Of a stretch of 64,000 bases of DNA, positions 1,259-63,380 are shown in pieces. The notes beneath the pieces are model-generated. The model worked only from the letters and a program-made list of their open reading frames with translations, did not search any database and was not told the DNA's origin. The position numbers and the translations under genes are program-made. Within the stretch, counting starts at the first letter, position 1. The number at the start of each line of letters is the position of its first letter. Location: NCBI RefSeq assembly GCF_004010195.1, contig NC_057756.1:3897232-3961231 (forward strand), given 5' to 3'. The DNA comes from Chiloscyllium plagiosum. Taxonomy: Eukaryota.

Positions 1259-1294
1259 ATTTGGACAATTCATACGAAAAACTCAAAAAGCAGG
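1259..1294 (+). CDS. Micro-exon 1, 36 nt, phase 1-1, (D)[11 protein letters not shown]
   Basis: ctgtcctttgtgtattAG|ATTTGG...AGCAGG|GTAAGC. Confidence 0.88.

Positions 1295-63380: not shown

Follow-up and report, generated by a model that had tools for sequence, protein, structure and literature searches.

The 64-kb window analysed here, positions 3897232-3961231 of contig C47 (NC_057756.1) in the 3.56-Gb assembly of the shark Chiloscyllium plagiosum, contains 18 very short segments bounded by AG and GT on the + strand, which lie between window positions 1259 and 63380 and read as micro-exons of a single gene. These micro-exons are known here from genomic DNA alone, with exons and splicing predicted, and their coordinates are counted from the start of the window. 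We rebuilt the set independently by splice-site score, and the outer coordinates, count, lengths and sum agreed with the original prediction, which had described at least 18 AG...GT segments of 24-36 nucleotides (nt) in phase 1. The length classes are 36 nt (six exons), 27 nt (nine), 30 nt (two) and 24 nt (one), and the combined 543 nt cover 0.87% of the 62,122-nt span, in line with the earlier estimate of a coding content under 1%. The introns between them measure 563-11,950 nt, with a median of 2,880 nt. Read from the third base, 18/18 exons are open, while the other two offsets leave 7/18 and 6/18 open, indicating that phase-1 introns lie on both sides of each exon. When joined, the exons gave 180 codons with zero stops, which bears out the stop-free peptide of 180 amino acids reported before. 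The exons are purine-rich (0.65 vs 0.49 in flanks) and sit in unique DNA according to a genome copy check; the 201 nt around the first of them, for example, are single-copy. Most have G as their last base and AA, AG or AT as their first bases, meaning that the split codon encodes E or D.

Each exon was given a composite score, consisting of the splice score plus residue log-odds. The exon at 1259-1294 (36 nt, phase 1-1, tag/AT..GG/gtaagc, composite 12.0) opens an unbroken heptad run. The register is kept by the exons at 5291-5317 (27 nt, VRLQQQAK, composite 7.0), 5881-5916 (36 nt, acceptor 7.3, composite 14.0), which places a cysteine at heptad d, and 12063-12098 (36 nt, composite 6.1). Between the last two lies the exon at 7906-7932 (27 nt, NQLANKMK, donor 7.0, composite 13.4). 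The exon at 13263-13289 (27 nt, EDLANAVI, composite 5.4) is individually weak, and it is required for the register to carry on into 17039-17068 (30 nt, LKNCKTTNP, acceptor 4.1, donor 8.3, composite 12.6). This seventh exon contains an L-x-x-C-K motif and closes the first coiled-coil segment at N-P-G.

The middle of the series consists of exons at 22186-22209 (24 nt, MNMRTKL, composite 7.3), 24062-24091 (30 nt, KCESLLRDI, composite 3.9), 25237-25263 (27 nt, ADNLKQKA, composite 12.9, with an alternative acceptor at 25243), 26970-27005 (36 nt, composite 9.5) and 27839-27865 (27 nt, DKFKAQMS, composite 8.0). The second of these is individually weak, and its last base is A, not G (aag/AT..CA/gtaagt). 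A possible exon at 39816-39842 (27 nt, HDGTCREK, composite 5.3) is weak, not coiled-coil-like and open in three frames, and it lies inside an 11.9-kb gap where further exons may have escaped detection. The last five exons are found at 42723-42749 (27 nt, IQDLLQKT, composite 12.1), 44129-44155 (27 nt, DALFEKEK, composite 9.3), 50404-50439 (36 nt, composite 2.8), 53396-53422 (27 nt, PKLTECEN, composite 5.5) and 63345-63380 (36 nt, donor 7.5, acceptor -5.0, composite 8.1). The exon at 50404 has weak splice scores and an alternative acceptor at 50413 that would shorten it to 27 nt; it is part of a second unbroken register run. The exon at 53396 carries an L-x-x-C-E motif. Phase 1 is the only open frame in the exons starting at 7906, 12063, 13263, 25237, 26970, 50404, 53396 and 63345.

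The bare AG..GT criterion is permissive, as phase 1 is open in 1,616/3,125 + strand segments whose length is 18-60 nt and a multiple of 3. Because this criterion is insufficient, we brought in flanking DNA together with frame and strand controls, namely the other two frames and the opposite strand. The total DNA read, including flanks, was 354 kb, with some tests performed on 264 kb; negative coordinates denote positions upstream of the window. After filtering for splice sites and for peptides rich in E/K/Q/L/N/D/R/A, the 264 kb yielded 48 open segments in phase 1 of the + strand vs 7-10 in each of five controls. Without the composition filter, the 61 + strand segments of 27 or 36 nt in the 354 kb were open at offsets 0, 1 and 2 in 28, 27 and 53 cases, respectively. 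The same splice-only filter on the - strand gave 47 segments of these lengths, open at the three offsets in 32, 31 and 29 cases. Among splice-filtered segments of 39-60 nt, the phase-1 bias was absent. At a composite score >=8 there were 47 segments vs 5-7 on the - strand, and at >=10 there were 34 vs 1-3. On this sequence evidence the + strand array of phase-1 coding micro-exons is very probably real, with the individual members less certain than the array as a whole. At -135 kb and -131 kb, two "exons" of 54 nt proved to be false positives inside a dispersed repeat.

Permissiveness of this kind would suit a chance pattern, in which A-rich, purine-rich unique DNA gives many short open AG..GT segments and the coiled-coil-like ones are picked by eye, and composition was indeed used both in the original selection and in ours. 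We consider such a pattern very improbable. The frame- and strand-specific excess persists when the composition filter is removed, and the heptad pattern, the register continuity and the conservation of a paralogous exon pair, all described below, are properties never used in exon selection.

In the 36-nt exons (n=16), L/I/V/M/F occupied peptide positions 1, 4, 8 and 11 in 11, 10, 12 and 6 exons, respectively. Position 11 was hydrophobic in 12/16 when A was counted, and positions 2, 3, 5, 6 and 9 were hydrophobic in 0-1. The position profile of the controls was roughly flat (0.07-0.46 per position, mean ~0.3). The profile of the 36-nt exons is thus a textbook a-d-a-d heptad pattern, and the coding signal observed directly is specific for frame, strand and position. 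The exon lengths follow the same logic. A 36-nt exon followed by a 27-nt exon forms a recurrent module of three heptads (12 + 9 = 21 residues), whose hydrophobic a/d positions fall on residues 1, 4, 8, 11 and 15, and the trio of 30, 24 and 30 nt at 17039, 22186 and 24062 gives 28 residues, or 4 heptads. Such modules with their a/d pattern indicate that the spliced product would be a long alpha-helical coiled-coil rod, with breaks at N-P-G, S-G-H-D-G and S-E-P.

Register continuity was also observed across exon boundaries. The first seven exons (1259 to 17068) share a single register, with the residues L L L L S L M L L L in column a, and the last five (42723 to 63380) form another unbroken register with the column L L L I L L L, 7/7 L/I. 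The 9/10 count in column a was reached by 101/5,000 exon-order permutations, by 48/5,040 permutations of the first seven exons and by 4/5,000 residue shuffles. Fourier power of the whole peptide at periods 7 and 3.5 was not significant (observed values reached by 828 and 1,305 of 5,000 permutations), because the register shifts between segments. Cysteine recurs at heptad d in the motif L-x-x-C-[QKR], and in 9/14 cases in the array it stands three residues past a hydrophobic a-position. The frame and strand excess and the a/d pattern together uphold the earlier view that the segments are symmetric phase-1 coding micro-exons of one + strand gene with a heptad, coiled-coil-like peptide.

Relative to the window, candidate exons reach from about -148 kb to +194 kb, with well-supported ones from about -119 kb, indicating that the array far exceeds the window. 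We estimate about 40 true exons in the 354 kb, with some 6-7 kb per exon. Lengths of 27 and 36 nt dominate, and the candidates also include eight of 21 nt and six of 24 nt; those at -119 to -98 kb are 21 nt long, one heptad each. Runs of N at about -2500 to 0 and from +127 to +128.5 kb could conceal further micro-exons.

Some exons of the window have paralogues further downstream. The exon at 42723-42749 and its paralogue at 102523-102549, 60 kb away, are 78% identical in nucleotide sequence within the exon and 38-40% identical in the flanks, a conservation limited to the exon and observed directly. Counting splice sites, 29/35 positions are identical, and the codon differences comprise 3 synonymous changes and 1 conservative I-to-L change. 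The exons that follow are collinear and similar: 44129-44155 matches 110877-110903 (70% nucleotide identity, flanks 30-35%), and 53396-53422 resembles 124810-124836, which encodes SKLKDCQK. These collinear paralogous exons are, as far as their sequences tell, the trace of an old internal block duplication. A recent tandem duplication was ruled out: queries of exon +/-60 nt shared nothing beyond chance within 264 kb, except for the 42723/102523 pair.

A genome-wide Pfam search placed an SPRY match of 65.9 bits on the + strand of C47 at 4577660-4577983. It lies within a B30.2 (PRY-SPRY) exon at C47:4577499-4578019 (+ strand, 521 nt; 177-codon open frame, then a stop), 616 kb past the end of the window and on the same strand as the array. 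Its acceptor, ttttgcag/TC, means that the exon starts with the last two bases of a codon, which is phase 1, as in the micro-exons. Downstream of the window, the + strand yielded no second exon of this subfamily, and a genome search with it returned no other member between the window and 4.58 Mb. The same search found relatives at C47:994524-995036 (+ strand, 59% identical to the 4.58-Mb exon) and C47:1296638-1297138 (- strand, 42% identical), and two more at 22.23 and 20.72 Mb of contig C37. Three B30.2 exons of one subfamily therefore lie on C47 (10.7 Mb), the third matching at C47:4577501-4578016 (+). Each of the subfamily exons on C47 and C37 may be the end of a separate giant coiled-coil gene. 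A candidate exon of 21 nt in phase 1, encoding SPKKDS (L031:2668-2688, donor 9.0), was seen 1.8 kb upstream of the 4.58-Mb exon and is possibly the final micro-exon of the rod. Separately, SPRY and B-box exons form a very large cluster at ~9.1-9.5 Mb and 17-34 Mb of C37, which accounts for most of the 150 scored matches per family and has the look of a massive TRIM-type expansion in the species.

Other domain exons were sought as well. Among the 450 longest + strand open reading frames (ORFs) in the 354 kb, no immunoglobulin (Ig), transmembrane or other domain exon was found, nor any conventional exon with a non-transposon Pfam match above cut-off, in a stretch that did not reach the true 5' end. 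No Ig V-set match lay nearby among the 150 scored of 1,319 candidates in the genome, and no B-box match was on C47 among the 150 scored of 312. The Lectin_C genome search gave 35 matches, none of them on C47, which ruled out a type II C-type lectin receptor with a coiled-coil neck. Of the domain exons for which the original prediction had pointed to the flanks, B30.2 was thus recovered, while Ig, transmembrane and C-type lectin exons were not found in these searches. The same prediction had described a 62-kb gene made entirely of micro-exons. That picture has to be given up, given candidates from -148 to +194 kb and a probable B30.2 last exon of 521 nt.

The array is probably joined to the B30.2 exon at 4.58 Mb. 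The basis for this link is strand, intron phase, the sole downstream subfamily exon and gene architecture, rather than continuous sequence. On the whole we favour, with some reserve, the reading that the 18 exons form the middle of a ~0.8-Mb + strand gene for a coiled-coil rod that ends in the B30.2 exon at C47:4577499-4578019. We infer from these observations that all exons would be spliced into one mRNA and connected to B30.2, and the oligomeric state, topology and function discussed below have the same standing.

Alternatively, the exons could be remnants of a formerly functional gene that are not joined into a translated mRNA today. As such a relic might show, splice scores are weak in several exons and the introns are swollen with repeats. 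Decay would nevertheless bring stops and register breaks, whereas 18/18 exons and 53/61 candidates of 27 or 36 nt are open in one frame with AG and GT intact, the heptad register runs unbroken through one series of seven exons and another of five, and the downstream B30.2 exon is itself intact. We regard a relic as improbable.

A protein with the architecture that a rod ending in B30.2 would have is predicted in the elephant shark, Callorhinchus milii. XP_042192744.1 (P0048; 1697 amino acids, named "nuclear-pore anchor-like") consists, in order, of an N-terminal hydrophobic segment, basic residues, a coiled coil of ~1,450 residues rich in E/K/Q/L/N and a C-terminal B30.2 domain. This B30.2 domain is 41% identical to the 4.58-Mb exon of C47, and both finish in ...ISIV. 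SPRY is the only Pfam domain in XP_042192744.1, in XP_007898089.1 (P0163) and in the models P0011, P0025 and P0161. XP_007898089.1 is an older model of the elephant-shark gene (1722 amino acids, "myosin-2 heavy chain-like"), and it differs from XP_042192744.1 in blocks of 9, 12, 16, 12, 9, 9, 12, 9, 10, 18, 12 and 3 amino acids. In this comparison of protein models, 9/12 blocks were reported as 9 or 12 amino acids long, corresponding to the 27- and 36-nt classes, and several of the blocks match the a/d profile seen in the 36-nt exons. For small paralogues in Callorhinchus and Narcine, isoform models differ by cassettes of 6, 7 and 9 amino acids; one cassette stands directly before the B30.2 exon boundary, and this boundary matches the start of the shark exon.

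The cysteine motif also connects the array with the elephant-shark protein. The pattern [LIVMF]xxC[QKRNE] accounted for 7/14 cysteines in the array, 12/22 in XP_042192744.1 and 13/24 in XP_007898089.1, vs 121/2,158 in 163 other B30.2 proteins (p = 4e-6). XP_042192744.1 thus shares with the array a long E/K/Q/L/N-rich coiled coil, the cysteine motif and the 9- and 12-residue blocks, and its C-terminal B30.2 resembles the exon downstream of the window. It differs in that the rods show no significant similarity and its N-terminus was not found here, and the automatic names are misleading. If the B30.2 link holds, the array gene is, judging by these sequence features, most likely the elasmobranch counterpart of XP_042192744.1. 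The statement that no known family could be assigned can accordingly be replaced, since the gene is placeable near coiled-coil-B30.2 proteins of the XP_042192744.1 type.

Shark annotations of this coiled-coil-B30.2 family look fragmentary at the sequence level. The nearest shark relative, a "hypothetical protein" of Chiloscyllium punctatum (P0164, 178 amino acids), is the B30.2 exon alone (59% identical), and the Scyliorhinus model P0011 combines an N-terminus with a repeat-derived look, judged by eye, with a few rod residues and B30.2. The best single-domain B30.2 relatives are cartilaginous-fish models with automatic TRIM39-, TRIM69-, TRIM58- or A33-like names. No long elasmobranch relative of the XP_042192744.1 rod was found; of 7,999 candidates, the two Callorhinchus models were the only ones to score. 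The models of other sharks agree with the earlier suggestion that automated annotation may miss or fragment the gene.

Several observations weigh against a single gene running from the array to the B30.2 exon. A blastp comparison of the joined array with XP_042192744.1 gave a best E of 0.058, which is not significant, a hidden Markov model of 12 exon-pair units did not pick out this protein, and its N-terminal 334 amino acids have no match in this genome. Exons were read as far as +194 kb, 486 kb short of the B30.2 exon at +680 kb, and this interval could hold another gene or an earlier 3' end. The 5' end of the gene was not found within the 354 kb read. At the level of single exons, 5/18 have composite scores <6 (13263, 24062, 39816, 50404 and 53396), about 12-14 of the 53-63 candidates with composite >=6 in 354 kb (53 when overlaps are removed) are expected to be false, and the splice sites were scored with a crude matrix instead of a trained model. 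Among the paralogous exons, only the 42723/102523 pair shows a clear synonymous excess.

These points leave room for real coding micro-exons that belong to some other gene, either one of the BG type (Ig, transmembrane segment and heptad tail, no B30.2) or an unrelated giant coiled coil that ends in the 486-kb interval. The array has no sequence similarity to the XP_042192744.1 rod, the tie to B30.2 is made by strand, phase, the sole downstream exon and architecture, and the 21-nt exons at -119 to -98 kb resemble the heptad exons of BG genes, which are given without B30.2 in the BG part of PMC4046983. Against this stand the absence of any Ig, transmembrane or other domain exon among the 450 longest ORFs, the match of the L-x-x-C-[QKR] motif and of the two main exon lengths, 27 and 36 nt, to the elephant-shark coiled-coil-B30.2 gene, and the agreement of the expected rod length with the distance to the B30.2 exon. 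At ~1.5 amino acids per kb over ~800 kb, the rod would reach roughly 1,200 residues, which is consistent with the ~1,450 in the elephant shark. An origin in another gene therefore appears unlikely to us, and we retain the reading of a coiled-coil rod gene that probably ends in B30.2.

The design of this gene can be compared with those of known families. In the account of chicken BG genes in PMC4046983, 13-36 symmetric exons of 21 or 24 nt each encode a heptad unit of a presumed coiled coil, alternative splicing and read-through are described, and B30.2 is absent. The shark array likewise builds a long stretch from many tiny symmetric heptad exons and has 21-nt candidates in its 5' part. It differs from the BG tail described there in using a 36+27-nt pair instead of a single 21-nt heptad, and no Ig V or transmembrane exon was found in the shark. 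According to the same account, butyrophilins and ERMAP follow the order IgV-IgC-transmembrane-heptad exons-B30.2, with a few cytoplasmic heptad repeats preceding B30.2 (PMC4046983), and PMC2657112 presents B30.2 as a ligand-binding, single-exon, shuffled module. Heptad exons followed by a single-exon B30.2 are therefore common to the butyrophilin order set out there and the shark gene as proposed, and a small elephant-shark paralogue formerly carried the automatic name "butyrophilin subfamily 2 member A2". The analogy to BG and butyrophilin heptad exons drawn in the original prediction has thus proved apt, with a phase-1 B30.2 exon downstream on the same strand. Differences remain in number, as butyrophilins have few heptad exons vs tens to over a hundred proposed for the shark, and in the Ig ectodomain of butyrophilins, which XP_042192744.1 lacks and of which no trace turned up near the window.

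Class IV TRIM proteins (RING-B-box-coiled coil-B30.2) also combine a coiled coil with a following PRY-SPRY ligand-recognition domain, but they have RING and B-box domains, neither of which occurs in XP_042192744.1 and its relatives. TRIM coiled coils are about 100-150 amino acids long and are not known to be made of micro-exons. Schistosoma micro-exon genes use runs of symmetric micro-exons that permit frame-preserving exon skipping. Their products are secreted by the parasite and unrelated to the shark rod, the genes are compact and follow no heptad logic, and this analogy is one of gene design only. The design of the array is closest to butyrophilin and BG, and it so far lacks both the Ig ectodomain of butyrophilins and the RING and B-box of TRIM proteins. 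It is best filed as a giant 36+27-nt-pair form without Ig or RING, present in databases only as uncharacterised, misleadingly named predictions. No description of such a gene was found in open-access papers and bioRxiv preprints, where small heptad coiled-coil exons were reported for BG and troponin T only.

The DNA around the exons is AT-rich (GC 0.33-0.43), with a few simple repeats in the window: (TAGA)19 at 1-77, (AAG)33 at 11088-11184 and (TTCT)58 at 27157-27388. A short dispersed repeat at 1484-1560, starting with ggagaaagtgagaactgcagatgctgg, has similar copies in the region, e.g. near -142.2 kb, and repeats of this type yield spurious open "exons" in scans. An element at 4337-4640, starting with gggcggcacggtggcacagtggttagc, is presumably akin to a tRNA-derived short interspersed element; ARAGORN called no tRNA on the window. 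In the CpG-island scan the observed/expected ratio was high throughout the region, so it gave no discrimination. The introns contain remnants of long interspersed elements (LINEs) with reverse-transcriptase ORFs (as a group, L028:8413-9018 on the + strand, L030:3480-4343 and L029:639-983). Reverse transcriptase and a GDSL-lipase-like ORF among these remnants (38.8 bits), taken to be part of a LINE, were the only Pfam matches above cut-off among the 450 longest + strand ORFs.

If the array and the B30.2 exon form one gene, the exons would encode a long coiled-coil rod that dimerises or oligomerises. With a coiled-coil rise of 0.15 nm per residue, such a rod would hold a ligand-binding B30.2 head far from an N-terminal anchor, at a distance on the order of 200 nm. 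If TRIM and butyrophilin proteins are a guide, B30.2 may serve as the ligand-binding head and the rod as a spacer or oligomerisation scaffold. The hydrophobic segment and basic residues of XP_042192744.1 suggest, from their sequence, a membrane anchor with the rod in the cytoplasm. In a cytoplasmic rod, the cysteines at d would be core residues and not disulfides; in a luminal or extracellular rod, they could staple a parallel oligomer.

Phase-1 symmetry combined with the 21-residue two-exon module may have allowed the rod to grow by tandem duplication, of which the paralogous block would be a trace. The same symmetry would permit cassettes to be included or skipped without frameshift. The earlier statement that any exon can be skipped accordingly holds for the reading frame but not for the heptad register, since skipping a single 27- or 36-nt exon moves the register by 9 or 12 residues and is not register-neutral. 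Only 36+27 pairs, 21-nt exons and 30+24+30 groups would be register-neutral units.

A wider proposal, which we put forward only tentatively, is that these genes constitute an undescribed cartilaginous-fish family in which at least 100 micro-exons of 27 or 36 nt, spread over nearly a megabase and joined across introns of several kilobases, encode a ~200-nm tether with a B30.2 head, tunable in length in 21-residue steps via 36+27 pairs and almost wholly missed by automatic annotation in large-genome sharks. As the shark models appear to keep only the B30.2 exon, proteome-based comparisons would miss >85% of the protein. If true, the gene would be among the most extreme vertebrate micro-exon genes, with tens to >100 consecutive exons of <40 nt separated by introns of 0.5-25 kb, and it would challenge both exon-definition splicing models and gene-finding programs. 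It would likewise widen the butyrophilin/BG design to include a giant Ig-less form in the oldest jawed-vertebrate lineage, and would bear on the shuffling of B30.2 modules among TRIM, butyrophilin and NLR genes.

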